Assembly (NCBI GenBank): GCA_049303575.1
Contig: JBAQNH010000002.1
Coordinates: forward strand, 247,932 to 311,931
Length of the DNA: 64,000 nucleotides
From: Microgenomates group bacterium
Lineage (GTDB): Bacteria; Patescibacteriota; Microgenomatia; UBA1400; MFAQ01
Reading direction: 5' to 3'
Positions 5,930 through 55,611 of the stretch are shown here, piece by piece. Both the position numbers and the translations under genes were made by a program. The first letter of the stretch is position 1. Each line of letters opens with the position of its first letter. Under the pieces are notes generated by a model. The model was given only the letters and a program-made list of their open reading frames with translations, ran no database searches and had not been told where the DNA came from.

Positions 5930-8041
5930 ATGGCTCGTAAAAAAGGTCGTCGCTCAAAGCCCTACAAACTGAATCTAAAAAAAGACACTGCCAACTCTGT
6001 TATGGCGCTGTTGATTATGGGTACCGGTGGTTTAATTGCTATTTCTTTTTCTCAGCAAGGGGCCTTTCTCACCCAAGTCAATGAAATTGGTCGCAATCTT
6101 TTGGGTTGGCCACTACTTTTAGTCCCCTTTATCTTTGTTGTTGGTGGTCTGCTTCTTACCCATGTCAAACTCGCCATCGCTTCAGCCCACGTTCTTCTTG
6201 GTAGTGTCGTCACCATGATTTCTTTAAGTGGACTTACCGGTTCAGGCAGTATCGGTTCAGGTATTAGAGAATCGATTATTTCTCTTATCTCCACTCCTGG
6301 AGCAATCCTTTTTTTCTTGGTCGGTACAGCCATCGGACTTTTCATTCTTTTTGAAACCTCTATCGAGGATCTCGTTGTCTTTATCCAAGAAAATCTCAAA
6401 AGAGTTGGTGACGCCAGTAGTAAACTCCAAACACTCGGTAAAAAGAACGGCACTGTTTTCGTCAGTAAGCCCGGCTCAGTCAAGATCACTGGCGGGGAAG
6501 ACAATTATGCACCTCCCATCATTCACCAGGAAGACACCAAAAAACCTCCCGTGGTTGGTCAACTGCCCCCCAAGCCCATGCTCGAAGGTGCCACGGCTAC
6601 AATCTGGCAGTATCCTCCAATTAGTCTTCTTTCGGATCAAAAACTCGGCAAAGCCGACCGTGGAGATATCAACAAAAATATTGAGGTCATCCAAAATACT
6701 CTTGAGTCATTTGGTATTCAAGCACACGTTTCTGAGGTTCATAAAGGCCCCGCCGTTACCCAGTATGCTCTGACTATTGCCATGGGTACCAAGTTGTCCA
6801 AAATTAATGCCCTTCAATCTGATTTGGCCCTCGCTCTTTCCGCACCACAAGGGCAAATCCGTATCGAGTCTCCAATCCCTGGTCGAGACTTGGTGGGTAT
6901 CGAAATCCCCAACCGCTCACTGGAATTTGTTTCTCTGAGAGATATGCTCAGTTCGCCTGCCATGCAAAACAACAAGTCAAAAACCATGGTCTCGCTTGGT
7001 TTAGATGTTTCCGGTACTGCTTGTGTTGTGGATATCGCCAAAATGCCTCACATTCTCATCGCTGGTACTACCGGTTCCGGAAAATCGGTTCTTATTAATG
7101 CTTTTATTGCCTCAATTCTTTTTCGAGCTTCCCCCGAAGAAGTCAAATTTATTATGGTTGATCCGAAACGTGTCGAGCTTACTCCTTATAGTGGTATTCC
7201 TCATCTACTTACCGATGTTATCGTCGATGTCGACAAAGTCGTCAACGCTTTGGGTTGGGCTGTAGCCGAAATGGAAAGACGTTATAAAATTTTTCAAGAG
7301 GTTGGTGTCAAAAATATTGCCGGTTACAACGAAAGTAAGGCCTTTCAATCCATGCCTTACATCATCATTGTCATTGACGAGATCGCCGACATTATGATGA
7401 ACAAAAACGCCGGCGAAGTTGAAAATCATATTGTCCGTTTGGCCCAAATGGCTCGTGCTGTTGGTATTCACTTGGTTCTTGCCACCCAACGACCATCCGT
7501 CAACGTCATCACCGGTATTATTAAAGCCAACATTCCCGCCCGTATTGCTTTTCAAGTCACTTCAATGATTGATTCTCGCGTTATTATTGACACCCCGGGT
7601 GCCGAAAAACTACTAGGTAAAGGAGATATGCTTTTTATTCCTCCGGATGTGGCCAAGCCCAAACGTATCCAGGGAGCATTTGTTTCCGAAAAAGAAATTG
7701 CCGATCTTCTCAGGTTTATTCAAAGCATTGGTGTTGAAGCCAAAAGAGATGACACAATTACAAAAAATGTTTCCAAAGGAAGAATTGGAACTAGTGGTCA
7801 GGACATGGGTAATGTAGATGAAAAATTTGAAGAAGCCGCCAGACTCTGTATCGCTGAAGGCAAAGGCTCTGCCTCCCTTCTCCAGCGTCGCCTTGAGGTT
7901 GGCTACGCCAGAGCCGCAAGAATCCTAGATCAACTGGAAAATGCTGGTATTCTTGCCCACGCCGAAGGTAATAAGCCTCGCGAAGTTATTGTTAATAGTT
8001 TTGATGAATACCTGCCCCAAAACGAAGAGCAGGAACAATAA
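5930..8041 (+). CDS. ftsK: DNA translocase FtsK/SpoIIIE
   Basis: N-terminal TM helices, motor domain Walker A GTTGSGKSV, C-terminal gamma wHTH. Confidence 0.9.
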   Translation: MARKKGRRSKPYKLNLKKDTANSVMALLIMGTGGLIAISFSQQGAFLTQVNEIGRNLLGWPLLLVPFIFVVGGLLLTHVKLAIASAHVLLGSVVTMISLSGLTGSGSIGSGIRESIISLISTPGAILFFLVGTAIGLFILFETSIEDLVVFIQENLKRVGDASSKLQTLGKKNGTVFVSKPGSVKITGGEDNYAPPIIHQEDTKKPPVVGQLPPKPMLEGATATIWQYPPISLLSDQKLGKADRGDINKNIEVIQNTLESFGIQAHVSEVHKGPAVTQYALTIAMGTKLSKINALQSDLALALSAPQGQIRIESPIPGRDLVGIEIPNRSLEFVSLRDMLSSPAMQNNKSKTMVSLGLDVSGTACVVDIAKMPHILIAGTTGSGKSVLINAFIASILFRASPEEVKFIMVDPKRVELTPYSGIPHLLTDVIVDVDKVVNALGWAVAEMERRYKIFQEVGVKNIAGYNESKAFQSMPYIIIVIDEIADIMMNKNAGEVENHIVRLAQMARAVGIHLVLATQRPSVNVITGIIKANIPARIAFQVTSMIDSRVIIDTPGAEKLLGKGDMLFIPPDVAKPKRIQGAFVSEKEIADLLRFIQSIGVEAKRDDTITKNVSKGRIGTSGQDMGNVDEKFEEAARLCIAEGKGSASLLQRRLEVGYARAARILDQLENAGILAHAEGNKPREVIVNSFDEYLPQNEEQEQ

Positions 8042-8046
8042 CTGTT

Positions 8047-8676
8047 ATGAAAACAGTTGGACAACTTCTCCACTCTGAAAGAAATAGGAAAAATATTTCT
8101 ATTTCAGAACTTTCTTTGGCTACCAAAATTGATGGCAAATATATCGAAGCCCTAGAAGCAGATCGTTATGATCTTCTTCCCTCCGAAACTTTTGCCAAGG
8201 GCTTTATCAGAAACTTATCGTTGAGTCTTGGTAGCGATCCGGAAGATTTTATCGCTGTTTTTAGGAGGGATTATCGTAATCCAGAACTCAAAAAAAATAT
8301 TGTCAAACAACACAAAAAACAAAGGCTTAATCTTCCTCATATATCTTCACAACTTCTACCAATAGTTCTGGGTGTAATTGTTTTTCTTGTTTACCTTATT
8401 TTTCAGTTTAGAGTTATTCTCACTCCTCCTCCTCTCACGGTGAATCGTCCTCTTGTAGGCGCCGTTCTCTCCTCTCCGGTTGAAATTCAAGGCTCAACTT
8501 CAACAGACTCCTTGGTCACCATAAATGAAGATAATGTCGTCAAACCGGATCAAAACGGTGTTTTTCAGGTAAGCATCAGTCTTCCTGTTGGTGAAATCTT
8601 GGTAAAGATAAAAGCCACCAATCGTTTTGGGAGAGTCACCTCTACCGATCTTCCCCTCACCATCATCTCCAACTAA
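8047..8676 (+). CDS. RodZ-like HTH (XRE) membrane protein
   Basis: N-terminal HTH ISISELSLATKIDGKYIEALE, central TM helix, C-terminal beta domain. Confidence 0.55.
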   Translation: MKTVGQLLHSERNRKNISISELSLATKIDGKYIEALEADRYDLLPSETFAKGFIRNLSLSLGSDPEDFIAVFRRDYRNPELKKNIVKQHKKQRLNLPHISSQLLPIVLGVIVFLVYLIFQFRVILTPPPLTVNRPLVGAVLSSPVEIQGSTSTDSLVTINEDNVVKPDQNGVFQVSISLPVGEILVKIKATNRFGRVTSTDLPLTIISN

Positions 8677-8709: not shown

Positions 8710-9009
8710 ATGACTTTGTCACAGATTATTTCGCTCATATCTGTCTCGGTTCTCACCGTCGTTGCTGTTATTGTCGGTATTGAGTTGATTTTGGTTCTCA
8801 AAGAACTAAAAAGCTCTCTAACAAGAGTCAATCACACACTTGATACCGCCGATGAAACTCTCCAAAAACTTTCCCAGCCAGCAGTAGGTCTCTTTGCTAT
8901 CATCGAGGGTTTTCGTCAGTCCGGAAAAATTGTCGAAATGGTCCAGCACTTACTTGGCAAAGACAAACCGTCAGCCCCGGTAAATCTTGAAGAAGATGAG
9001 CCTCAATAA
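8710..9009 (+). CDS. small membrane protein, DUF948-like
   Basis: N-terminal TM helix followed by a helical region; paired with a YtxH-like ORF as in Firmicutes. Confidence 0.35.
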   Translation: MTLSQIISLISVSVLTVVAVIVGIELILVLKELKSSLTRVNHTLDTADETLQKLSQPAVGLFAIIEGFRQSGKIVEMVQHLLGKDKPSAPVNLEEDEPQ

Positions 9010-9295
9010 TAACCAAGACCACCACTTTTCCTCCTTTGCCATGGGAGCAACCATCGGCGTCATCGCCGCTTTACTTTTTGGCACCGAAGAGGGTCGAAAA
9101 GTCGTTAAGGAAGTCTTGAATACCATTCCTGAAAAATACAAAAAGATCCCAGGGAATCTTCTTCCTCACGAGAAACCTGAAGAAGTTCCCCAGACTCCGA
9201 TAATTACTCCCCAAGAAACTCCTCACCACGCTACCTATGATTTTGAAGCACCACCACCTCCCCCTCCGTCAGTGCATCCTTTCCATCCAGAGTAG
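8987..9295 (+). CDS. YtxH-like small protein with Pro-rich C-terminus
   Basis: GATIGVIAALLFGTEEGRK motif typical of the YtxH family. Confidence 0.35.
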   Translation: MKKMSLNNNQDHHFSSFAMGATIGVIAALLFGTEEGRKVVKEVLNTIPEKYKKIPGNLLPHEKPEEVPQTPIITPQETPHHATYDFEAPPPPPPSVHPFHPE

Positions 9296-9307
9296 ATATC
9301 CTATAGC

Positions 9308-9336
9308 TTGACATTTAGCCCGTTTTGGAGTATACT
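9308..9336 (+). promoter_or_regulatory. consensus sigma70-type promoter (TTGACA, 17 nt spacer, TATACT)
   Basis: exact TTGACA and TATACT hexamers, 17 nt spacer, then RBS AAGGAGAG and ATG at 9381. Confidence 0.55.
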
Positions 9337-9380: not shown

Positions 9381-9650
9381 ATGGGTTATTATTTCAACCC
9401 CCCCCAGTTACTTCCGCAAAAAGGTCGAAAATTAACTACCCGTAGTAATTTATACGGCGAACTCGTCGCTCAGCTTCAGCCAGGTGAAAAACTCATGGGG
9501 CACTATGATCGCGGCATGTTTCAAAATGCTGTCCACCTGTATTCCCAGAGCGAGTTCGATGGTTTTGAAGATCAGGTTAAGCGGGGAATAATTATCCGCC
9601 TGGGATTTTATGCCCTCAATGAAGAAGATTTCGCTCAGTATGTCGGGTAA
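9381..9650 (+). CDS. hypothetical protein (89 aa), monocistronic
   Basis: own consensus promoter, strong RBS, own terminator; no recognisable domain. Confidence 0.45.
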   Translation: MGYYFNPPQLLPQKGRKLTTRSNLYGELVAQLQPGEKLMGHYDRGMFQNAVHLYSQSEFDGFEDQVKRGIIIRLGFYALNEEDFAQYVG

Positions 9651-9661
9651 ATTTTGTACAA

Positions 9662-9696
9662 AATACCTCTTTTTTAAATAAGAGGTATTTTTTTTA
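9662..9696 (+). terminator. rho-independent terminator
   Basis: AATACCTCTT / AAGAGGTATT stem followed by T8. Confidence 0.6.
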
Positions 9697-9715
9697 GGCT
9701 ATAATTTGTATTCAA

Positions 9716-11554
9716 ATGACCATTAACGACATCAGGAGCAAATTCCTCTCTTTTATGGAAAAAAGAGGACATGCCATTATCCCTTCTGCATCACTAGTCC
9801 CCGAAGGTGACGCCACCACTCTTTTTACTTCTGCTGGTATGCAACCAATGATGCCCTATCTCCTTGGTCAAAAACATCCTTTAGGTACCCGTCTTGTTGA
9901 TTCTCAAAAATGTTTTCGTTCCGGAGATATTGATGAAATAGGAGACAATCGTCACACTACTTTTTTTGAAATGCTTGGTAACTGGTCACTGGGAGATTAC
10001 TTCAAAGACAAACAGCTTGAATGGTTTTTTACCTTTTTGACAAACAAAAACGAAGGTTTGGGTTTGGACCCTAAAAGACTCTTCGTCACCGTTTTTGAAG
10101 GAGGCTCTGGTGTAGGTAAAGATGTAGAAGCTGTCTCCATTTGGCAAGATCTCTTTAAAAAAGTAGGTGTTAGCGCCAAGGAAGGCGAACGTATTTTTGC
10201 TTATCCCGCCAACAAAAACTGGTGGTCCAGATCAGGAACTCCTGAAAATATGCCTGCCGGAGAACCAGGTGGTCCGGACTCCGAGGTCTTTTTTGATTTT
10301 GGTGAAAATCTAAAACTCCATGAAAAATCTAGTTTTAAAAAACAAAAATGTCACCCCAACTGTGACTGCGGTCGTTTTATGGAGATCGGCAACTCTGTTT
10401 TTATGCAGTATCTTAAAAAAGAGGATGGTACTCTTGAAGAACTTCCTCATAAAAACATCGACTTTGGTGGTGGTCTTACCCGTCTGGAGGCTGCCGTCAA
10501 CTCCGACCCGGATATGTTCAGGATCTCAAGTCTCCTCCCTTTGATTTCGGAAATTGAAAAAATTTCTGGAAAATCTTACTCTGATGTTGAAAATCAACCT
10601 CTCATGCGCGTGATTGCCGATCATCTCACCGCCGCTACCTTTCTTATTAAAGATGGTGTTTTCCCAACCAACAAAGCGCAAGGATATGTTCTTAGAAGGA
10701 TACTTCGTCGTGCCGCTGTCAAACTATATTTTCTGACTTCTGATTTCGAAACTCTCGAAAGACTTGCTGAACTTAGTTTCCTGGTCGCTCAGATTTATTC
10801 TCCTCTTTATTTCGATATCAAAAGAGACACACCCGTTCTTCACGAGACCATAAAGACCGAAATTAAAAGATTTAGTGTTTCCCTGGACAAAGGTATTAAA
10901 GAACTCGAAAAAAATCCCAAAATTGATGGTAAGGCCGCCTTTGACCTTTATCAAAATTATGGTTTCCCGCTGGAAATTACCGCTGAAATACTATCCAGAA
11001 TGAATATAAAAATCGACACGAAACAATTTGAAGCTGAATTTGAAAAACACAAACAACTTTCTCGTTCCGCTTCCGCCGGCATGTTTACCGGAGGCCTTGC
11101 TGACCACTCCAAAACCGTCACGGCGTACCACACGGCCACCCATTTGCTTCACGCTGCTCTCCGTCAAATCTTAGGTACTCACGTTGGTCAAAAAGGATCC
11201 AATATCACCTCGGAAAGACTCAGATTTGATTTTTCTCATCCGGAAAAACTCACGGATAATGAGATCAAATTAACTGAAGAATTAATCAATAGAGCAATCT
11301 CCACTAAACTTCCGGTTACTAGGGAAGAGATGAAAAAAGATGACGCTATTGCACAGGGAGCCATGGCTTTCTTTGGCCAAAAATATCCTGACATGGTTAG
11401 TGTTTACACGATTGGCGACAAAGAAAATACCTTTTCCAAGGAAATCTGCGGTGGACCCCATGTGACTAATACCCAAGAACTTGCTAAGATAAAGATAGTC
11501 AAACAAGAGTCACTGGGCGTTGGGACACGTCGCCTTTACTTACAGTTTGTTTGA
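9716..11554 (+). CDS. alaS: alanyl-tRNA synthetase, short form lacking the C-terminal C-Ala domain
   Basis: 612 aa; class II catalytic core (FTSAGMQP, FFEMLGNWSLGDY), editing domain HTATHLLH and CGGPHV motifs. Confidence 0.9.
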   Translation: MTINDIRSKFLSFMEKRGHAIIPSASLVPEGDATTLFTSAGMQPMMPYLLGQKHPLGTRLVDSQKCFRSGDIDEIGDNRHTTFFEMLGNWSLGDYFKDKQLEWFFTFLTNKNEGLGLDPKRLFVTVFEGGSGVGKDVEAVSIWQDLFKKVGVSAKEGERIFAYPANKNWWSRSGTPENMPAGEPGGPDSEVFFDFGENLKLHEKSSFKKQKCHPNCDCGRFMEIGNSVFMQYLKKEDGTLEELPHKNIDFGGGLTRLEAAVNSDPDMFRISSLLPLISEIEKISGKSYSDVENQPLMRVIADHLTAATFLIKDGVFPTNKAQGYVLRRILRRAAVKLYFLTSDFETLERLAELSFLVAQIYSPLYFDIKRDTPVLHETIKTEIKRFSVSLDKGIKELEKNPKIDGKAAFDLYQNYGFPLEITAEILSRMNIKIDTKQFEAEFEKHKQLSRSASAGMFTGGLADHSKTVTAYHTATHLLHAALRQILGTHVGQKGSNITSERLRFDFSHPEKLTDNEIKLTEELINRAISTKLPVTREEMKKDDAIAQGAMAFFGQKYPDMVSVYTIGDKENTFSKEICGGPHVTNTQELAKIKIVKQESLGVGTRRLYLQFV

Positions 11555-13728
11555 CGACTTCTGTCATGAACTTAGTAAATCTATTTGGAAACAAGTCAAA
11601 AACCAAAGAACCGGATTATTTTTTGGCCATCGAGATTCATGAATCTCTCATTAAAACCGCTCTCTGGGAAGTTGCCGAGGGAACTCCCTCTGTCATTAAA
11701 GTAGGATCATTTGAGTCATGGGCTGATGAAGACTCTCTTATAAATGGAGTTGATGCCTCACTCGAGCAAGCCGTCAAAGACATTGATTCCGAACCCCGAA
11801 AAGTTATTTTTGGACTTCCTGATTCCTGGATTGATGACGGCAAAGTTCACCCTTCAAAAACCAAACTAATAAGTCGTTTAGTTAAAGAGTTAGGACTTGA
11901 TCCCATTGGTATGGTTCCCATAAACTCCGCCATTGCTCATTACATGAAAAATCTTGAAGGTATTCCTCCCACGGCCATTCTTCTTGAAATCTATACTACC
12001 AAAGTTGTTGTCTCCGTTATTGAAAAGGGTGAAATAACCTCATCGGAAGAAACTGCCAGGTCAGATGACCTAGCCCAAGATGTTGAGGAAGGACTAACCG
12101 TCATTGGCAAGGAAAAGCTACCAGCTCGTTTTATCCTCACCAACGGCGGAGCACTTGAGGAAGAAGAACAACGCATCACCTCTCATCCTTGGCAGGAAAG
12201 GCTTCCTTTTCAACATATGCCCAAGGTTGAAGCTCTACCCGTAGACTTTAGTATTCGAGCCATTGCTCTCACTGGAGGTACGGAAGCTGTCCAATATCTT
12301 ACTGGAAAGACAAGCGAAGAGCCGCAGGAAGAAAGTTTTCCTCATGAAGAAACTAATATTTATGTTCCGGAAGTCTCACCGACATCCATTGACGAGCTCG
12401 GTTTTTCGTACGAAGAGGCCGATGCTCCCTCATCGGTAGAAAAAGCTCCCCCCGAAACATACGTCGAAACATCCACCGAAATCTCGGAACCGGAATATGC
12501 TCTTAGTCCGGAAGAACCATCCTTTACTCCAAAACCAAAAAATAAACTCGCTTTTTCTCTACCAACTTTTCCAAAATTTAGACTTCCCGATATAAAAGTA
12601 AATAAACTTTCTTGGTTATATTTACTAATCCTACCTTTGTTATTGATTTTGGGTTATGTTCTTTATCTATTTACCGGACAGGCAATTATTTCCATTGCCT
12701 TCAATCCTCAAAAAATCACTGGTCAGTACACCATCTCCATTGCCGAGAGTTCTGTTTCGGCCACACCCACTTTATTGTCCACAAAAAAAACGGTTTCTGG
12801 CTCTGCCAAAGAACAAATTCCTACCACTGGAGACGCGACTGTAGGGGACAAAGCTTCCGGAGCAATTACCATTGCCAACAAATCAACTGCCCCCATTGTT
12901 ATTAAAGCCGGCACCAGCATTCTCTCCGAAAATAGCAAATATGCGTATACCATAAACGATGCAGTGACCGTCGCTTCCAAGAGTGCCGATGTCGGCATTG
13001 TTCAGGGAGCATATGGAATTGCGTCAGGGGTAAAGGTGACAGCAGTCAAGATTGGTGCTGACTACAACCTTCCCAAAAACTCAAATTTCTCCGTTGATAA
13101 CTACTCAAAAAACACCATCATTGCCGTTGCTGATGCAGACTTCTCCGGTGGAACATCCAGAGCAGTTCGTGCAGTTTCCAAAGCCGATCAAGACAAACTT
13201 CTTTTACTGGCTACCGAGAAAATAAAGGCGCAAATTCAAGCCTCAACTCAATCACAAACTCCCGGATTTAAATCTCTGGCACTTTCCGAATTTGCCTTCA
13301 CCAAAAAAACTTTTGATAAGAATGTTGGCGAAGAAGCCACGGTTTTAAATTTGGATCTTGAAGGGTCGGTTGATACTCTCGTTTATTCCGAGGACAATCT
13401 TTATCAACTAATTGCGGTTCAACTCGCCCCCCAAATACCCGCTGGCTCAGAAATTTTTCCTGGAAACACTGCCATCGTACTCGAAGAACCAATTAAAAAA
13501 GACGGCTACTACGAAGCAAAAGTAAACGTGGAGACCAGTCTCTTCCCCAAGATTGATGAAGAAAAATTAAAAGCAGCTATCGGGGGAAAATCTGTCACCG
13601 GAATTCGCCCCTACTTCTCTACTATTCAAGGGTTTAGTCAACTTAGGATTAAAATTGCCCCCAAAATTCCCATTTTCACCAACTTCCTTCCCCTGAAAAA
13701 CATCAAGTTTGAACTAGTGGAGGACTAA
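11551..13728 (+). CDS. hypothetical membrane protein: N-terminal PilM/FtsA-like actin-fold domain, acidic linker, single TM helix, large extracellular domain
   Basis: 725 aa; residues ~20-190 resemble the PilM/FtsA SHS2 and 1A/2A region; TM LSWLYLLILPLLLILGYVLYLF at ~aa 350-375. Confidence 0.5.
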   Translation: MTTSVMNLVNLFGNKSKTKEPDYFLAIEIHESLIKTALWEVAEGTPSVIKVGSFESWADEDSLINGVDASLEQAVKDIDSEPRKVIFGLPDSWIDDGKVHPSKTKLISRLVKELGLDPIGMVPINSAIAHYMKNLEGIPPTAILLEIYTTKVVVSVIEKGEITSSEETARSDDLAQDVEEGLTVIGKEKLPARFILTNGGALEEEEQRITSHPWQERLPFQHMPKVEALPVDFSIRAIALTGGTEAVQYLTGKTSEEPQEESFPHEETNIYVPEVSPTSIDELGFSYEEADAPSSVEKAPPETYVETSTEISEPEYALSPEEPSFTPKPKNKLAFSLPTFPKFRLPDIKVNKLSWLYLLILPLLLILGYVLYLFTGQAIISIAFNPQKITGQYTISIAESSVSATPTLLSTKKTVSGSAKEQIPTTGDATVGDKASGAITIANKSTAPIVIKAGTSILSENSKYAYTINDAVTVASKSADVGIVQGAYGIASGVKVTAVKIGADYNLPKNSNFSVDNYSKNTIIAVADADFSGGTSRAVRAVSKADQDKLLLLATEKIKAQIQASTQSQTPGFKSLALSEFAFTKKTFDKNVGEEATVLNLDLEGSVDTLVYSEDNLYQLIAVQLAPQIPAGSEIFPGNTAIVLEEPIKKDGYYEAKVNVETSLFPKIDEEKLKAAIGGKSVTGIRPYFSTIQGFSQLRIKIAPKIPIFTNFLPLKNIKFELVED

Positions 13729-13729
13729 C

Positions 13730-14482
13730 ATGCTCTACGGATACAAAAAGGCTACGGCGAAAAATCCGCATCCTGGGCGAAAAATCCCCATCTACCTAAA
13801 AACCGTACCAACATTAATTTCTGCCCTTGGCCTTGGAATCCTTGGTGCCGTAGCTTATCCCGTGGTAAGTTATCAGTTAAAAGACTTCAAGCCGTTTAGT
13901 CTGGTAAATACTGGCCTTCTCTCCCCGGTCTATTACGAATCAAAAGCAAGCTCGGATCGTGAACCAAAGGTCCTGAGTGACCTGGACTATACCAAAGCCA
14001 GTAGTTGGTTCCCCGGAGACACTCAAAATAATCCCTTTACTGCCCCCAAGATGGACGATGGCAACATTCCCGAATTTTATTCCATCTCTGTTCCTTCCCT
14101 TGGACTTGCCGATGTTCAGGTAAGTTTATTTGACGAAGATCTGACGAAACACCTGGTCCAGTATCCTCAAACCGCACTTCCTGGGGAACTCGGTTCGCCT
14201 GTAATTTTTGGTCACTCTACCCTCCCACAATTTTATAATCCCTTAAAATACACCACCATTTTTTCCAATTTACCCAAAATAAAACTTGGTTCGGACGTCT
14301 TTGTCAAATACAAAGACGCAGAATATACTTATCGAGTTACCAGTATTATTGAGGTAAAACCATCGGAGCTCTGGGTACTAAAACAAAACTACAACGCTAA
14401 AACTATTAAATTAATTACTTGCGTTCCTCCTGGAACCACTCTTCGTCGTCTAGTGGTGGAAGCAACTCTCATTGAAAATTAA
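13730..14482 (+). CDS. sortase family transpeptidase
   Basis: N-terminal TM anchor, catalytic His (IFGHSTL), TLxTC motif (KLITCVPPG), Arg (RRLVV). Confidence 0.7.
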   Translation: MLYGYKKATAKNPHPGRKIPIYLKTVPTLISALGLGILGAVAYPVVSYQLKDFKPFSLVNTGLLSPVYYESKASSDREPKVLSDLDYTKASSWFPGDTQNNPFTAPKMDDGNIPEFYSISVPSLGLADVQVSLFDEDLTKHLVQYPQTALPGELGSPVIFGHSTLPQFYNPLKYTTIFSNLPKIKLGSDVFVKYKDAEYTYRVTSIIEVKPSELWVLKQNYNAKTIKLITCVPPGTTLRRLVVEATLIEN

Positions 14483-14484
14483 AT

Positions 14485-14883
14485 ATGAAAACAATACTCT
14501 GTCTCGATCTTGGTACCGCTCATACAGGCATTGCCATTTCTCACGAGGGAATTCTTGCCGAACCTTTGGCTACCATTTTTGAGTCCAAAAAAGACAGACT
14601 CCTTGGTAAACTCCTTCCCTTTATAGCCAAAAACGATCCTGAAACCATCGTTATTGGTGTTCCTCGTCATGGTCCGTTGGTTGAAACAGCTTCAGACCTA
14701 AAAAAACAGCTTCAGAAAGTTTTCTCTGGCAAAATTGTTTTGTTTTCGGAAGACTTTTCTTCCCGTTCGGCCAGAAGCCTCCTGAAAGAATCTGGTAAGA
14801 CTTTAATGAGAAGAAAAAAGAGTGAGCATCAAACAGCCGCCGCCATCATTTTGGAGGACTATCTAGACAACGCCGACAATTAA
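14485..14883 (+). CDS. ruvX: Holliday junction resolvase-like YqgF/RuvX
   Basis: ILCLDLGTAHTGIAIS N-terminus; RNase H-like fold family. Confidence 0.85.
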   Translation: MKTILCLDLGTAHTGIAISHEGILAEPLATIFESKKDRLLGKLLPFIAKNDPETIVIGVPRHGPLVETASDLKKQLQKVFSGKIVLFSEDFSSRSARSLLKESGKTLMRRKKSEHQTAAAIILEDYLDNADN

Positions 14884-14903
14884 CACTTTGATACAATAAA
14901 GCT

Positions 14904-15110
14904 ATGTTCAAGAATATTATTGCTCCCGTTCAGGCCTGGCTCCTTTCCAAAGGCTCTTGCGTTGGTTGTGGCACCCCACTCATTGAAGGTGAAAGTATCC
15001 CTTCAAAAAAGGTCAAAGACTGCAATCAGGTCACCTGCAAATGTGGTCGTATCTTTATTTATAATCCCAAGACAAAAACCTACCGCCGCGCCCTTTTAAG
15101 TGAAGTATAA
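14904..15110 (+). CDS. small zinc-ribbon protein
   Basis: CVGCG ... CKCG pairs; 68 aa. Confidence 0.35.
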   Translation: MFKNIIAPVQAWLLSKGSCVGCGTPLIEGESIPSKKVKDCNQVTCKCGRIFIYNPKTKTYRRALLSEV

Positions 15111-16104
15111 ATTCATGTTTAAACGCCTTTTTACTGTCTTTACCATCCTTTTTATTGCCCTTTTTGGTTGGTTTTTTCAAGCTACTAGACCAGTCACTTA
15201 CAAACAAACTTCCACTCAAGAGTTTGAAATTAAACCCGGTTGGGGTATCGACCGCATTGGTCAAGAACTAAGTGCTGCCAAACTAATTAGGTCCAGAGCC
15301 GCGTTCAAAATTACCGTTATAGTTCGTGGTATTTCCAGTCGAGTTCAAGCTGGCTTTTTTAGACTTTCACCCAATATGAGTATCACCGAGATTGCCAACA
15401 GTCTCACTCATGCCAGTACCAAGACAATAAGAGTCACTATCCCCGAAGGTCTTCGTCGTCAAGAAATTGCCCTTATCTTCGAAAGTGCCTTTAAAAATGC
15501 CGAAGGTAAGACTTTTACTACTACCGAGTTTATTTCCAAAACCGCCGACAAAGAGGGGAGACTTTTCCCGGATACTTACGACTTTGATCCCAAAGCCACT
15601 ACTTCCGCTATCATCAGTCGTTTAGAAAAAAGATATTTGGATATCTTAGTTGAAGCAAAAGTTTCGGAAGCAGACATAAACAAGGTAACCATACTTGCCT
15701 CACTTCTGGAAAGAGAAGCTGCCTCCTCTACCGAAATGCCCGAAGTTGCTGGTGTTATTGAAAACAGAATCAATGCCGGCTGGCCACTTCAAATTGACGC
15801 CACTGTTCAGTACGCCTTGTCCACCATCCGTTGCCGAAAGCTTGACTGCGATTGGTGGCCAAAAAGTCTTACCCGGGCAGACCTTCAAGTTAGCTCACCC
15901 TACAACACCTACCTCAATCAAGGTTTACCTCCCAAACCAATCAGTAATCCTGGGAAAGCCGCCCTCCTAGCCGCCGTTTCTCCCAAGAAAACATCCGCTT
16001 GGTTTTATCTTCACGATTTAAATGGAAAAATTCATTTTGCAAACACCATCGAAGAGCACAATCAAAACGTTTGCACCTACCTTCAAAAAGACTGCGGCAA
16101 CTGA
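15100..16104 (+). CDS. mltG: endolytic murein transglycosylase MltG (YceG-like)
   Basis: N-terminal TM helix, YceG domain, conserved alaS-ruvX-mltG neighbourhood. Confidence 0.8.
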   Translation: MKYKFMFKRLFTVFTILFIALFGWFFQATRPVTYKQTSTQEFEIKPGWGIDRIGQELSAAKLIRSRAAFKITVIVRGISSRVQAGFFRLSPNMSITEIANSLTHASTKTIRVTIPEGLRRQEIALIFESAFKNAEGKTFTTTEFISKTADKEGRLFPDTYDFDPKATTSAIISRLEKRYLDILVEAKVSEADINKVTILASLLEREAASSTEMPEVAGVIENRINAGWPLQIDATVQYALSTIRCRKLDCDWWPKSLTRADLQVSSPYNTYLNQGLPPKPISNPGKAALLAAVSPKKTSAWFYLHDLNGKIHFANTIEEHNQNVCTYLQKDCGN

Positions 16105-16237
16105 TGAATCTTTAGGTTGACAACGGCCTCAACATTATGATATCCTAATGGCACTGCTATAAACTTGGCTGGATTTTGTGTCGGTCAGGTTTTCGTATGT
16201 TTCATTGTTATTTACTTTTCCTTAAAATCCAAAACGG

Positions 16238-51133: not shown

Positions 51134-52303
51134 ATGAAAAAAATTATTCAACTCTTTTCCTCGTTGGTTCCCGCCTTTTTATTCATTTCTATTTTTGCTT
51201 CCTCCGCCGGAGCAGTTTTTTTTCAAACCGGTGACAGTCTTGTAATACCCAAAGAAAAAATAATCAATGAAACAGCCGTCATTTCCGGTTCTTCGCTTAC
51301 CATTAATTCAAATATCAACGGAGACCTTTTGTGTGCTGGTCAAAATGTTGTAATTAATGGGAACATCAAAGGTGATGTTATTTGTTTTGGTCAAAATATT
51401 AAAATAAACGGCACTGTTGATGGCAATGTTCGTGCTGCAGGCCAGACAATCGAGATCTTTGGCCAAGTTACCAGGAATCTTTCAATTGCCTCACAACAAC
51501 TGGTTCTTGATTCAAAGTCGCAAATAAAAGGTGATGTTTTTTTTGGAGTTCAGAATGTCGAACTGGGTGGTGTCATGGGACGTGACCTAGCCGGAGCCGG
51601 TGACTCAATCACTATTACAGGGTCTCTTTTAAGAAACGCCGTCGTTACGGGAACAAAGCTGTCCATAATTGAAACTGGAAAAATTGGCGGCAACCTTGAC
51701 TACTATATGGAAAAAACAGCCACGGCTTCAATTGGTGAAAAAACTGTCAAAGGAAATATACTAAGACACGATATTGTTACTCCCTCAAAACCTGCATTAG
51801 ACAAAAAAATGGCCGGCATTGCCAACACAGCCATTATCCTCAAAACCATATTTGGAATCCTCTCCTTTGGTCTTCTTGGTTTGGCTATTGTTTTCTTCGA
51901 CAAAAAAGACACCAAAAAGAAAATTTCCGCAATCATCAATAAACCCCTGGTCAGCGGACTTATTGGTTTAGCGATCTTAATCACTGCCCCCTTAGTCTTC
52001 ATTATTATTCTGGCTACGGTTATTGGTATGCCTTTGGCCTTTGTTGTTATGTTTGTTTATATCATTGCTCTAATTACCGCCTCACTCTATCCTTCAGCCA
52101 TATACGGAAAACTCTTTTTTGAAAAAGTGCTTCAAAAAACAAACACCTCTCTTTATTCTCAAATGTTTATGGGAGTAATCCTACTCGGGCTTGTTTCAAT
52201 TATTCCGGTTATTGGTTGGATAATTGCTTTTGTATCATTCTGCATGGGACTTGGAGCCTCTCTCGTTTCAATGTTCCCCGAAAAAGCCGAAACTAAAAAT
52301 TAA
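51134..52303 (+). CDS. membrane-anchored beta-helix repeat protein (bactofilin / polymer-forming-like repeats) with C-terminal multi-TM domain
   Basis: signal/TM N-terminus, repeated INGxIKGDV / GQNVxINGxV units, 4 predicted C-terminal TM helices. Confidence 0.4.
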   Translation: MKKIIQLFSSLVPAFLFISIFASSAGAVFFQTGDSLVIPKEKIINETAVISGSSLTINSNINGDLLCAGQNVVINGNIKGDVICFGQNIKINGTVDGNVRAAGQTIEIFGQVTRNLSIASQQLVLDSKSQIKGDVFFGVQNVELGGVMGRDLAGAGDSITITGSLLRNAVVTGTKLSIIETGKIGGNLDYYMEKTATASIGEKTVKGNILRHDIVTPSKPALDKKMAGIANTAIILKTIFGILSFGLLGLAIVFFDKKDTKKKISAIINKPLVSGLIGLAILITAPLVFIIILATVIGMPLAFVVMFVYIIALITASLYPSAIYGKLFFEKVLQKTNTSLYSQMFMGVILLGLVSIIPVIGWIIAFVSFCMGLGASLVSMFPEKAETKN

Positions 52304-52763: not shown

Positions 52764-53375
52764 TTACATTGACACGCTGTCGGCAAAAACCACCAGACGT
52801 TTGCTATAACTTTTTTTGTTCAAATCCCAAACCCCATCACAAGTAACCAGATTTAAATGAACACCGTCATTCAGATCAAATACTTCTTTTGCATAATCAG
52901 GATTTAAAATACGTTTTTCTCGAACAATAAAAACAAACGACTCTCCCTTATCATCCTCAACATATATCAAACTATTTTCTTTTAATTTATACAAATCGAC
53001 AAACACCCCTGCTTCATCATTCTTTCCATCTAAATGTCCGGCAATAACGGCACTTCCGATCTCCCCGGGGATTGGTCCAATTTTAAACCATCCGGCTTCA
53101 AGAATACTGTTCGGAACCTCCATTTCCCCTTCTGAATTAACGCCAACTTGCTGAATAGCGGTATCGACGTTGATTGCTGGTATTATTAGGCGTACCGGAA
53201 TTCCCGGTCTCTTACTCTGTTCTTCGACCCCCAAAACTTTGATTTTCTCGTTTGGTAAAGTTTGTCGATCATGAACCTGAATTTTGTATAGTCCAATCGA
53301 AGATATTAAAAACAACACAAAAGAAAATGTCATTAACACAACACGTTCTCTTAGTCTTGTCCAGTGAATAAACAT
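52764..53375 (-). CDS. sortase family transpeptidase (second copy)
   Basis: N-terminal TM helix, IAGH, LNLVTC (TLxTC), RLVV motifs. Confidence 0.7.
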   Translation of the reverse strand: MFIHWTRLRERVVLMTFSFVLFLISSIGLYKIQVHDRQTLPNEKIKVLGVEEQSKRPGIPVRLIIPAINVDTAIQQVGVNSEGEMEVPNSILEAGWFKIGPIPGEIGSAVIAGHLDGKNDEAGVFVDLYKLKENSLIYVEDDKGESFVFIVREKRILNPDYAKEVFDLNDGVHLNLVTCDGVWDLNKKSYSKRLVVFADSVSM

Positions 53376-53403: not shown

Positions 53404-54579
53404 TCAGACTCTCTTTCGCTCTCCCCTGGAAATGAAGTAAATGCCCAAACCTAAAAGCGTTCCCACTAGAACACTCCAATAATTATTATTACTCTCTCCA
53501 CCAGTCCCCGCATTAGGTAATCTTGGTCCTCCCACAAGAACTGCGGCTTCAAAAGTTCCAATCTGACACTCATTTCTGGCGGCCACTTGCACCCAGATTG
53601 GTTGGTTTGCCGGGAGGGCATTAATCGTCGTTGAAAATCCCGTCACATCCACGTTGTAAATCAAATTATCCTTTGTCGTTCCATAACGGACAATAAAATC
53701 ATTCGTTCCAGAGTAAGGTCCCCAGCTAATATAAATACTATCCGCATCCACTCTTCTTGAATCAATTATGTTTGGTGCAATAACTCCGAGATCTATAGTT
53801 GGACAAAATGGATTTGGAGCGCTATTGTCACCGATTGATGATCCAACTGAAGATGTCGTTGTGGTTGAAGCGGTACAGGTTGGTCCACTTATTGTATTGC
53901 CGTCCAGTGTCACTGTACCTGCATCTTGGACTAAGAGACGACCATTCAGAGTCGCACCTGTATTCATAGCATTTACGCCGTTAAGAGCCAATATATTTCC
54001 TATAAACGAAGTGGTTGTGCCAAGGGTTACTGAGCTACCAACTCTCCACCATACATTGCAAGGGTCACCACCGGTAACAGACGAACCGGACGAGGTGATC
54101 AGCGTCGATACTGTTTTAAAAATCCAAACCCCCGACCCTGCAAGAGTTAGATTTCCGGAAAGTGAGAAACTACTTGTTGAACAATAAACGCCTGGACTAA
54201 GTGGAGAAATCAAGGTTAAATCTTGAGCCCCATATGTTTGATCACATGTTTGGTCTAATGTACCGAAAGCTGTGAGATTGTCTGCTTGTGCCGCTATTGC
54301 GCTTGCATCATTGTTGTGCAGATAAACTGCATTATTTCCACCGGCTATTCCCGGAGGGAAGCCTGTTAATGACGTTCCTGAGCTGACTCCAACATTTCCG
54401 GTTGTTGTTGTCGAACCGGTATTCGTCACCGCCTGTCCTCCAAGAACGGAATAGCTTGATGCACCCACTAGTATTGGTGAGGTTGCTGCATACACCGGTG
54501 TCGCCAAGAAAAAAAATAAAGCAGGGATAAAAATCTGCACCAAACTCAACCCAAAAGAAAAAACTCTACCTTTTTTCAT
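53404..54579 (-). CDS. secreted surface protein: signal peptide, DUF3494 ice-binding-like domain, FN3-like domain, C-terminal LPNAG sorting signal
   Basis: signal peptide ending VYA; TGxT/GxS-rich DUF3494-like N-terminal region (VTGFPPGI); C-terminus LPNAG + hydrophobic stretch + RGERKRV. Confidence 0.6.
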   Translation of the reverse strand: MKKGRVFSFGLSLVQIFIPALFFFLATPVYAATSPILVGASSYSVLGGQAVTNTGSTTTTGNVGVSSGTSLTGFPPGIAGGNNAVYLHNNDASAIAAQADNLTAFGTLDQTCDQTYGAQDLTLISPLSPGVYCSTSSFSLSGNLTLAGSGVWIFKTVSTLITSSGSSVTGGDPCNVWWRVGSSVTLGTTTSFIGNILALNGVNAMNTGATLNGRLLVQDAGTVTLDGNTISGPTCTASTTTTSSVGSSIGDNSAPNPFCPTIDLGVIAPNIIDSRRVDADSIYISWGPYSGTNDFIVRYGTTKDNLIYNVDVTGFSTTINALPANQPIWVQVAARNECQIGTFEAAVLVGGPRLPNAGTGGESNNNYWSVLVGTLLGLGIYFISRGERKRV

Positions 54580-54831: not shown

Positions 54832-55611
54832 ATGACCCGTATTTTAATAATTTGTTCCTTCTGTAAGGGAAAAATATATCGAAATCCGAGCAGTATAAAT
54901 AGTAAACATAATTTTTGTAATCATCACTGTTCAGCTTCGTTTACCAACAGAAAAAGAACTACAAAACTATCGGTTTTAAGAAAAACTCGGGTAATTCTAT
55001 CTCCGCTTTGCAAGCAGTTTGGCTGTTCCAATCACATTGGTCTAGAAAATAAAATATTTTGTTCATATCAATGTAAAAAAGCCTTCTATCAAAGCGGACA
55101 CTCACAATTCAAAGAAGAAAGTATAAAAAGGGTCAGTTCCTTCATGAAAGAATATGGCAGATTACCTGTTAAACGAGAGTTTTCTCAAGGATACAAAAGA
55201 ATTCTTCACGTCTTTGGTTCCTGGAATAATCTGATCAAATCTGCGGGTTTCGAACCCAATCCGGTATTATTTTCTCGGAAATATATCGCCAACGACGGAC
55301 ACGGATGTGACTCTTTATCTGAAAAAATTATTGATGATTGGATGTTTGCACGGAAGATTCCACACCTGATAAAAGAAAAATATCCTTGGAATAACGGCAT
55401 GACAGCTGATTTTAAAGTTGGTGAATATTGGATTGAATTATTTGGACTTGTTGGTCAATTGAAGTCATATGATTGTTTAATGAAAATAAAACTTCAAAAA
55501 GTCAAAGAACACAATTTAAACTTAATTAGTTTATTTTTAAGTGATTTGTTTCCACATAATCATCTTCAAGATAAATTAGACATCTTGCGAAAACGGTCAA
55601 CTTATCTATAA
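54832..55611 (+). CDS. hypothetical Cys-rich (zinc-ribbon) protein, strongly AT-rich gene
   Basis: several CxxC/CxxxC pairs in the N-terminal 90 aa; composition far below the window average. Confidence 0.4.
   Translation: MTRILIICSFCKGKIYRNPSSINSKHNFCNHHCSASFTNRKRTTKLSVLRKTRVILSPLCKQFGCSNHIGLENKIFCSYQCKKAFYQSGHSQFKEESIKRVSSFMKEYGRLPVKREFSQGYKRILHVFGSWNNLIKSAGFEPNPVLFSRKYIANDGHGCDSLSEKIIDDWMFARKIPHLIKEKYPWNNGMTADFKVGEYWIELFGLVGQLKSYDCLMKIKLQKVKEHNLNLISLFLSDLFPHNHLQDKLDILRKRSTYL

Follow-up and report, generated by a model that had tools for sequence, protein, structure and literature searches.

A predicted actin-fold membrane protein encoded beside a sortase at a conserved Microgenomates locus

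Results

We analyzed a window of 64,000 nucleotides from a Microgenomates group bacterium; coordinates are positions in this window, and the genes and protein features of the alaS-mltG block are on the + strand. The alaS gene (9716-11554) encodes a short alanyl-tRNA synthetase of 612 amino acids (Pfam tRNA-synt_2c, 2.4e-107, and tRNA_SAD). Its stop codon is overlapped by the TTG of the next ORF (11551-13728; 725 amino acids from TTG), whose product we call protein X. The ORF of a sortase (13730-14482; 250 amino acids) begins 1 nt past the protein X ORF and is followed by ruvX (YqgF; 14485-14883; Pfam RuvX, 5.8e-25), by an ORF for a Cys-rich, zinc-ribbon-like protein of 68 amino acids (14904-15110), and by mltG (YceG; 15100-16104; Pfam YceG, 1.1e-73; TIGR00247, 1.4e-59), which encodes an endolytic transglycosylase and closes the gene block. 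The rpoB gene comes next; on the upstream side of the block are ftsK and a gene of the RodZ-like type. The initial annotation had placed protein X and the sortase as an insertion between alaS and ruvX-mltG, and the ORFs and the Pfam matches on both flanks bore this out. The 68-amino-acid Cys-rich protein had no match in Pfam and is conserved, with 63-97% identity by tblastn in the loci where it was found. Base composition of the protein X region is the same as that of its flanks. The operon contains 14 promoter-like sites (shuffle mean 11.6, sd 3.7) and 14 terminator-like sites (shuffle mean 8.0, sd 3.4); both counts are within ~2 sd of the shuffle mean and are not informative. A promoter-like site scoring 11/12 was seen at 9308-9336, and a hairpin of the terminator type was seen 3' of mltG.

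Nearly all homologues of protein X begin with MNLVNLFG in the alignment, which corresponds to M6 of the ORF, so the true start is probably the ATG at 11566, giving a protein of 720 rather than 725 amino acids. We found 198 full-length homologues. At E<=1e-30, the family comprises 1,736 clusters (50% identity), and at E<=1e-3 the number of representative clusters rises to 8,445. Of the 145 new clusters among the best 150, 142 measure 650-830 amino acids. Protein X is present in several Microgenomates lineages, and every named relative comes from Microgenomates or "Patescibacteria group" and is annotated "hypothetical." Literature searches covering sortases, pili, and FtsA of CPR bacteria as well as baseplate J yielded no account of this family, and the recently described Pam pilus of CPR bacteria is unrelated to it. 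Column conservation was counted over 143 diverse members (~30% identity).

Structure prediction gave protein X a minimal ASKHA/actin-fold domain on its cytoplasmic side, spanning residues ~22-251 (11614-12303; ~230 amino acids). The predicted N-domain consists of two RNase-H-like beta-beta-beta-alpha-beta-alpha-beta-alpha lobes that form a complete minimal 1A+2A core, and neither the 1C/SHS2 nor the 2B subdomain is present in it. FtsA and PilM are the nearest solved structures to this predicted fold. The initial annotation had likened the first ~190 residues to the SHS2/1A-2A half of PilM/FtsA-type proteins. The actin-like 1A/2A part of this assignment stood in the model, whereas SHS2 is absent and the domain has the longer boundaries given above. 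Likewise, the PilM/FtsA likeness held for the predicted fold, but not for sequence-level membership, and the nucleotide motifs are degenerate. Protein X and 21 family members did not match the Pfam models FtsA, SHS2_FTSA, PilM, PilM_2, T2SSL, GspL, or GspL_C, and protein X matched no FtsA-type family in NCBIfam. An N-domain profile searched against PDB sequences returned nothing genuine, only spurious gp41 matches, and hhalign aligned the N-domain with Escherichia coli FtsA in the expected register at a probability of just 1.8%.

Among the nucleotide-binding motifs, only the adenosine GG is conserved in the 143 members. It lies in LTGGTEA (residues 240-246; 12268-12288), where G242, G243, and E245 are conserved at 95-99%. 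The phosphate-1 loop position is occupied by EIHES (residues 28-32; 11632-11646) in place of the canonical DxG, and the site varies across the family (position 28, E95/Q22/V13; position 30, T/S/G/E/Q/N). The phosphate-2 loop position, LLEIYTTK (residues 144-151; 11980-12003), lacks the canonical DxGGG and also varies (position 146, G37/E23/Q23/R17). F220, H222, and P224 of the family signature FxHxPKVE (residues 220-227; 12208-12231) are invariant in the 143 members, as is W93, another non-catalytic signature residue. Because the family as a whole does not keep the phosphate-binding Asp and Gly residues, the N-domain is most likely a nucleotide-independent protein-binding or oligomerising platform, and not an ATPase. 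In the alignment, however, E28, H30, E146, and K151 do not vary among members of the Collierbacteria/Woesebacteria subfamily, so a ligand may still occupy the old nucleotide site in these proteins.

The N-domain is followed by an acidic linker that is rich in Pro, Ser, and Thr and varies in length (residues 252-351; 12304-12603; 21 D/E, 15 P, and 20 S/T in 100 residues), and by a single transmembrane helix (residues ~352-376; 12604-12678) in the hydropathy scan; the initial annotation had noted an acidic Pro/Glu-rich linker and one such helix. Within the linker lies a short linear motif, ELGFSYEE (residues 282-289; 12394-12417), whose core across the 143 members is [DE]-[LF]-G-F (G284, 94%; F285, 97%). 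The 100-residue linker carries 8 K/R, mostly just before the helix, whereas the 24 residues that follow the helix include a single K. This positive-inside distribution implies that protein X is bitopic with its N-terminus in the cytoplasm.

The extracellular region (residues 377-725; 12679-13725) is predicted to start with long beta-strands and to continue with a beta-barrel, a long helix, and alpha/beta modules, and looks non-enzymatic. It had been described as belonging to no recognizable family, and this description has to be revised: residues 433-535 (12847-13155) are predicted to form a Baseplate_J/GlxA-type beta-barrel. The Pfam Baseplate_J model (PF04865) scored 19.1 bits on the full protein (E 8.9e-4) and 21.4 bits on the isolated ectodomain, against a cutoff of 21.1, and matched 15 of 21 members at E<=0.1 (best, 2.3e-5); the part of the model covered is positions 21-110 of 255 alone. 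The predicted ectodomain fold is similar to solved baseplate wedge proteins; an ectodomain profile searched against PDB sequences gave no match.

The paired sortase consists of a cytoplasmic tail, a transmembrane segment (residues ~25-47), a linker, and a catalytic domain (residues ~120-247; Pfam Sortase, PF04203, 2.8e-20). Its catalytic His (FGH162), Cys (ITC231), and Arg (R239/R240) are kept in an alignment of 45 orthologues. All NCBIfam class models scored far under their cutoffs (best, class C, 52.4 bits compared to 160), and the top-scoring PDB entry was also of class C (9.9e-9). The tail carries the motif LYGYKKA (13733-13753; family pattern LY-x-Y-x-K-[AS]). In the 45 paired sortases, the tail is as conserved as the catalytic core, with Y5 and K7 at >=95%, whereas the extracellular linker is poorly conserved. 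The tail is kept in most lineages, and it is absent from the second sortase of the window and from the paired sortases of loci L050 and L052. A single protein with a sorting signal (LPNAG; 53404-54579) is encoded in the 64-kb window, where it adjoins the second sortase; no LPXTG-type substrate was found beside the paired sortase in this window.

The pairing of protein X with the sortase proved to be conserved when related loci were compared. Neither outcome that would have refuted the initial annotation was therefore seen, be it an N-domain that lacks an actin-like fold or a pair that is not co-conserved. Among the 49 informative non-redundant loci, 47 have the sortase gene directly downstream of protein X, and the pairing persists to ~28% identity; the gap separating the two ORFs is <=108 nt. 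The genes stay joined where the downstream genes differ (NUDIX in L054 and L058) and where alaS has been lost or has changed orientation (L050-L052). By contrast, inserted genes separate the sortase from ruvX in at least 10 of 40 loci. Two distant loci (L048 and L049) have a PMT_2/GT-C glycosyltransferase after protein X in place of the sortase, and these enzymes lack the LYxYxKA tail. However, 44 of 47 informative loci have alaS next to protein X, an adjacency as tight as that of the sortase, so adjacency alone is no proof of functional coupling and partly reflects a compact, conserved operon.

Discussion

The domain plan and gene order suggest that protein X acts as a bitopic transenvelope scaffold coupled to the downstream sortase and to cell-wall growth, a tentative reading to which we assign a probability of about 0.4. 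The initial annotation had proposed a module for transenvelope assembly or anchoring, which likewise stays an inference. The scaffold would share its layout with GspL or with PilM fused to PilN and would work together with the sortase encoded immediately 3' to it. The N-domain might dock the LYxYxKA tail of the sortase, by analogy to the docking of the PilN N-terminal peptide by PilM, and protein X might thereby position or gate the sortase-mediated wall anchoring of surface proteins, paced with wall growth. The link to wall growth is drawn from the presence of mltG in the operon and of ftsK and the RodZ-like gene upstream. The 1C subdomain of PilM is part of the PilN-binding groove in PilM:PilN structures. 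Since protein X lacks 1C, the docking analogy cannot be a structural copy, and the absence of the tail from the L048/L049 glycosyltransferases and the L050/L052 sortases makes docking less general. A more ambitious proposal is that protein X and its dedicated sortase constitute a new transenvelope machine, known to date from Microgenomates and other genomes labelled Patescibacteria alone, in which a pseudo-ATPase would recruit the sortase by its tail and the ectodomain would serve as an external hub. At such a hub, the sortase might build or anchor a surface structure, such as a host-attachment organelle; alternatively, the hub might couple the anchoring of surface proteins to the place where the wall grows. 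We regard this machine as unlikely; if it exists, it would be the first sortase controlled by an actin-fold cytoplasmic platform.

Protein X could instead be a membrane anchor of the divisome or elongasome, similar to FtsA or to RodZ/MreC, with the sortase as a mere syntenic neighbor. The actin-fold domain would then bind FtsZ, MreB, or another cytoskeletal partner, and the ectodomain would organize MltG-type wall enzymes. The 2B subdomain of FtsA binds the FtsZ C-terminal peptide, and protein X is missing both 2B and 1C. This absence, together with the 1.8% hhalign probability, the lack of Pfam FtsA and SHS2_FTSA matches in the 21 members, and the lack of ftsZ or ftsA nearby, makes an anchor of this type doubtful. 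A role as a pilus or secretion assembly platform, in which a fused PilM-PilN/GspL analogue carries an ectodomain that nucleates a fibre polymerised or anchored by the sortase, seems improbable to us. Genes for pilins, the PilB/PilT ATPase, PilC, or LPXTG pilins were absent from all loci examined, the class C sortase score of 52 bits is far under the cutoff of 160, the Pfam PilM and GspL models went unmatched, and a PilM of their own is reported for the type IV pilus loci of CPR bacteria (PMC6744442; PMC7143001).

There are two further explanations. Protein X might be a client of the neighboring envelope enzyme: the sortase would cleave it or link it to the wall, or the GT-C enzyme of L048 and L049 would glycosylate it. 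It might also be a surface receptor that sends signals into the cytoplasm. In favor of these roles, the next gene codes either for a sortase or for a PMT_2 protein-mannosyltransferase-like enzyme, and exported proteins are the targets of both; the ectodomain has a high S/T content; a conserved LP motif (P714, 98%) lies close to the C-terminus; and the residues TTG at 425-427 are invariant within the close subfamily. However, a canonical sorting signal (LPXTG, hydrophobic segment, and basic tail) is absent, the Pro preceding TTG is not conserved, and the AF2 model places TTG in a turn between two predicted strands and the LP motif in a confidently predicted region just ahead of the final strand. 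We consider the client or receptor role highly improbable, and we rejected protein X as a classical sortase substrate, given the missing signal and the position of TTG at a predicted turn. The match of the ectodomain to baseplate protein J could also mean that the region is a remnant of a prophage or contractile injection system. This explanation has almost no chance of being correct: ~90 of the 255 Baseplate_J model positions are matched, composition equals that of the flanks, other phage genes are absent, the gene has a fixed place in a housekeeping operon in 50-odd genomes, and full-length orthologous clusters number in the thousands. Context and composition thus effectively refute a prophage or injection-system origin of the Baseplate_J-like domain.

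If the preferred coupling of the protein X scaffold to the sortase and wall growth is real, the locus would provide a testable handle on how monoderm-like ultra-small cells organize surface-protein anchoring or envelope growth from the cytoplasmic side, and the bitopic actin-fold platform design of GspL and PilM-PilN would extend to processes other than pili and secretion. Should there be no such coupling, a large orphan family still gains a structural annotation. Within the CPR, Microgenomates make up a very large and uncultured branch, and next to nothing is known of their cell biology.

Comparison with known systems places protein X and its sortase near several families. It shares the predicted two-lobe ASKHA/actin-like fold of FtsA. 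However, FtsA has 1C/SHS2 and 2B subdomains, which protein X lacks; FtsA carries DxG/DxGGG motifs that are not conserved in the protein X family; FtsA ends in an amphipathic helix, whereas protein X has a true transmembrane helix and a 350-amino-acid ectodomain; and ftsA sits with ftsZ, whereas the protein X gene adjoins alaS and the sortase gene. As in PilM/GspL, an actin-like cytoplasmic domain is linked to a bitopic membrane segment, but protein X lacks both sequence membership in the PilM/PilN/GspL families and a 1C-like subdomain. The PilN/GspL_C ectodomain is ferredoxin-like, whereas protein X has a Baseplate_J-type barrel and alpha/beta modules. The partner genes of PilM/GspL belong to pilus or secretion systems, whereas that of protein X encodes a sortase, and neither the block in this window nor any of the 50-odd related loci carries pilN, pilO, pilB, pilC, or gsp genes. 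The baseplate protein J family comprises wedge proteins like phage P2 gpJ, Mu gp47, and T4 gp6, and the GlxA barrel is also alike. Protein X matches the N-terminal part of the family model alone and, in contrast to these proteins, is membrane-anchored, cellular, and encoded in a housekeeping operon; no sheath, tube, other wedge partner, or contractile-tail gene set was found at any of the protein X loci compared. The paired sortase shares with sortases A-F the fold signature, the His-Cys-Arg residues, and the N-terminal transmembrane anchor, but it falls below every NCBIfam class cutoff and has no adjacent LPXTG substrate. It also has a conserved cytoplasmic tail of ~24 residues (LYxYxKA...PG), a feature that we do not know from any description of classical sortases. 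The protein X locus joins a minimal FtsA/PilM-like fold, a baseplate-J-type ectodomain, and a tailed, dedicated sortase in a combination not seen before.

A tightly packed block encoding X and a sortase

The genes from ftsK to rpoB are all on the same strand and tightly packed. The block opens with ftsK (5930-8041, +), followed directly by a gene for a RodZ-like HTH_25 membrane protein (8047-8676, +), genes for two small membrane proteins (8710-9295, +), an 89-aa ORF, alaS (9716-11554, +), the 725-aa ORF for X (11551-13728, +), the gene for a 250-aa sortase (13730-14482, +), ruvX (14485-14883, +), a 68-aa Cys-rich ORF (14904-15110, +), and mltG (15100-16104, +), with rpoB next. Gene identities were confirmed by Pfam and NCBIfam, and GC over the X and sortase genes is 0.41-0.47, no different from that of the flanking DNA. 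In the alignment, almost every X homologue starts at the position of M6 (MNLVNLFG), and the ATG at 11566 lies 11 nt past the alaS stop, which implies that the true X product is probably 720 aa. We rejected the interpretation of this region as a phage remnant.

Several features of the surrounding genes were also recorded. The RodZ-like protein has an HTH_25 domain and a TM helix and ends in a domain with weak resemblance to Glucodextran_B; the small membrane proteins show weak similarity to DUF948 and YtxH; and the order ftsK-RodZ-like-small membrane proteins is kept upstream of alaS-X in many related loci. The alaS product is just 612 aa (catalytic domain and tRNA_SAD; 611-645 aa in homologue loci), much shorter than the ~870 aa of a typical bacterial AlaRS, and so the C-Ala/DHHA1 C-terminal region appears to be missing. 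The 68-aa ORF product (CxxC...CxC, zinc-ribbon-like) has no Pfam family, and its gene overlaps the mltG start and takes the place of yrzB in the B. subtilis alaS-ruvX-mltG cluster. In related loci where tblastn found it, its identity was 63-97%, and it is better conserved than ruvX or mltG. A sigma-70-like promoter match (11/12) at 9308-9336 (+), upstream of the 89-aa ORF, and a terminator-like hairpin (12-bp stem) at 16161-16192 (+), just past mltG, would bound one operon at ~9381-16104; both are consensus matches only, and overall counts lay no more than about two standard deviations from the shuffle mean.

X joins an actin-like domain with degenerate nucleotide motifs to an ectodomain

The initial annotation had likened the first ~190 residues of X to the SHS2/1A-2A half of PilM/FtsA-type proteins. 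Our AlphaFold2 model of residues 6-262, built on an alignment of 21 sequences (pLDDT 86.7, pTM 0.82), contains two copies of a beta-beta-beta-alpha-beta-alpha-beta-alpha unit, which is the bare ASKHA/actin-like core. The top Foldseek match was PilM (E 2.7e-9, TMq 0.61), followed by EutJ, FtsA, and sugar kinases. Thus, the actin-like fold was correctly recognized, but it extends over ~230 residues rather than 190, and the model has both lobes and lacks an SHS2/1C or 2B insert. By sequence, membership of FtsA or PilM is undetectable: Pfam gave no FtsA/PilM match for the N-domains of 21 family members, comparison with PDB sequences found nothing real, and hhalign placed residues 19-86 on E. coli FtsA 10-85 with a probability of 1.8%.

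The nucleotide-binding motifs have degenerated across the family. In an alignment of X with 142 diverse representatives (median 30% identity to X), the acidic/glycine positions of phosphate-1 and phosphate-2 vary (E/Q/V/L at position 28; G/E/Q/R/N at 146), and W93, G120, P191, F220-x-H222-x-P224-K-V-E, and G242-G243-x-E245 are invariant or nearly so. From this pattern, we infer a non-catalytic, protein-binding pseudo-ATPase, as GspL-type domains are known to be.

The N-domain is followed by an acidic, Pro/Ser/Thr-rich linker (residues 252-351), whose length differs among homologues. Its one conserved island, ELGFSYEE, in which G284 and F285 are 94-97% conserved family-wide, is typical of a short docking motif. 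The K/R-rich stretch ahead of the single hydrophobic helix (residues ~352-376) indicates an N-in topology. In the ectodomain model (residues 373-725; pLDDT 86.0, pTM 0.56), the subdomains are confident and their relative orientation is not. Baseplate_J was matched by 15 of 21 family members (best 2.3e-5), with the isolated X ectodomain scoring 21.4 bits where the cutoff is 21.1, and the GlxA barrel by 8 of 21 in Pfam; the ectodomain barrel is a borderline match to Baseplate_J/GlxA in sequence but a clear one in its modelled fold. Positions at least 90% conserved in the ectodomain are Gly, Ala, Pro, and aliphatics plus only S476, N443, N506, and D546. The absence of His, Cys, Glu, Lys, and Arg from this set in the family alignment suggests a structural or binding role rather than an enzymatic one.

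X belongs to a large family co-conserved with a sortase

Searching 1.84 billion cluster representatives with a profile gave 8,445 proteins at E<=1e-3, of which 1,736 reached E<=1e-30. The best 150 include 145 new representatives, 142 of them 650-830 aa long, which implies the full-length architecture in nearly all of them. Conservation in distant members is highest in the N-domain. The named homologues, all annotated as hypothetical, come from Collierbacteria, Woesebacteria, Daviesbacteria, and Beckwithbacteria or carry the label Patescibacteria group, and the window proteins are 94-96% identical to those of a Collierbacteria MAG (loci L005 and L011). The same clearly Patescibacteria-type block also occurs in many MAG records titled uncultured Pseudomonadales bacterium, Gammaproteobacteria, Spirochaetia, and Pseudomonadota (L005, L006, L014-L017, and others), titles that are probably mislabels from bulk MAG submissions.

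We mapped the window genes onto 48 genome loci and the contigs of nine further homologues. The pairing of X with a sortase, proposed in the initial annotation, was borne out: the two genes are adjacent in 47 of 49 informative, non-redundant loci, on the same strand with ORF gaps of at most 108 nt, down to ~28% identity. The pair is kept in L054 and L058, where NUDIX and other genes come after the sortase, and extra genes separate sortase and ruvX in at least 10 of 40 loci (gaps of 347-2120 nt). Since alaS sits just as close to X (44 of 47 loci; lost or inverted in L050-L052), gene adjacency by itself does not prove that X and the sortase are functionally coupled. The exceptions to the pairing are L048 and L049 (27-28% identity). 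In these loci, the latter titled Daviesbacteria, the next gene encodes a ~670-aa PMT_2/PMT-type GT-C glycosyltransferase with a MecA_N NTF2-like domain (L048 6168-8195; L049 8148-10145), so the same slot is taken by another extracytoplasmic protein- or envelope-modifying enzyme.

The paired sortase has a Pfam Sortase domain with His162, Cys231, and Arg239/240 and falls outside every defined NCBIfam class (the best, class C, scores 52 bits where 160 are required). In an alignment of 45 X-paired sortases, the ~24-residue cytoplasmic tail ahead of the TM helix bears M-LY-x-Y-x-K-[AS]...P-G, which is conserved as well as the catalytic core; the extracellular linker is not conserved. This LYxYxKA motif is absent from the sortases of L050 and L052, whose tails are short, from the GT-C enzymes that follow X in L048 and L049, and from the window's second sortase (52764-53375, minus; 203 aa; Pfam 1e-21). 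This second sortase lies directly downstream of a secreted Ice_binding-like surface protein (53404-54579, minus; 391 aa; PF11999, 1.3e-37) whose sorting signal is of textbook form, with LPNAG followed by a hydrophobic stretch and RGERKRV. The genome therefore holds at least two sortases, the second with its own adjacent putative substrate. Adjoining this pair is a 389-aa protein (51134-52303, +) with a domain of the bactofilin cytoskeletal polymer family (PF04519, 1.7e-8), and a 259-aa homing-endonuclease-associated HNH_repeat protein (PF18780, 5e-9; 54832-55611, +) is encoded immediately upstream of recA.

A proposed platform and its relation to known systems

We propose that X acts as a bitopic scaffold of GspL or PilM-PilN design, which would link a platform in the cytoplasm to a hub outside the cell and work with the paired sortase, possibly by docking its tail. 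This cooperation may belong to wall growth, because mltG is in the operon and ftsK and the RodZ-like gene lie upstream. Rival explanations are that X is an FtsA-like division or elongation anchor unrelated to the sortase, a platform for a pilus or for secretion, or a client of the neighbouring enzyme. FtsA and PilM are nearest to X in fold, and GspL and PilM-PilN are alike in architecture. X fails the tests that define the FtsA, PilM, and GspL families, whether by subdomains, by sequence models, by nucleotide motifs, or by gene context.

Our literature search found no paper on the X family or on any actin-fold partner of a sortase. X represents a large orphan family that spans its lineage; its architecture is unusual and testable, and its function is only proposed. 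Compared with known systems, we classify the scaffold proposed here as a bitopic actin-fold platform, an already-known design in which the partner and the ectodomain are new.
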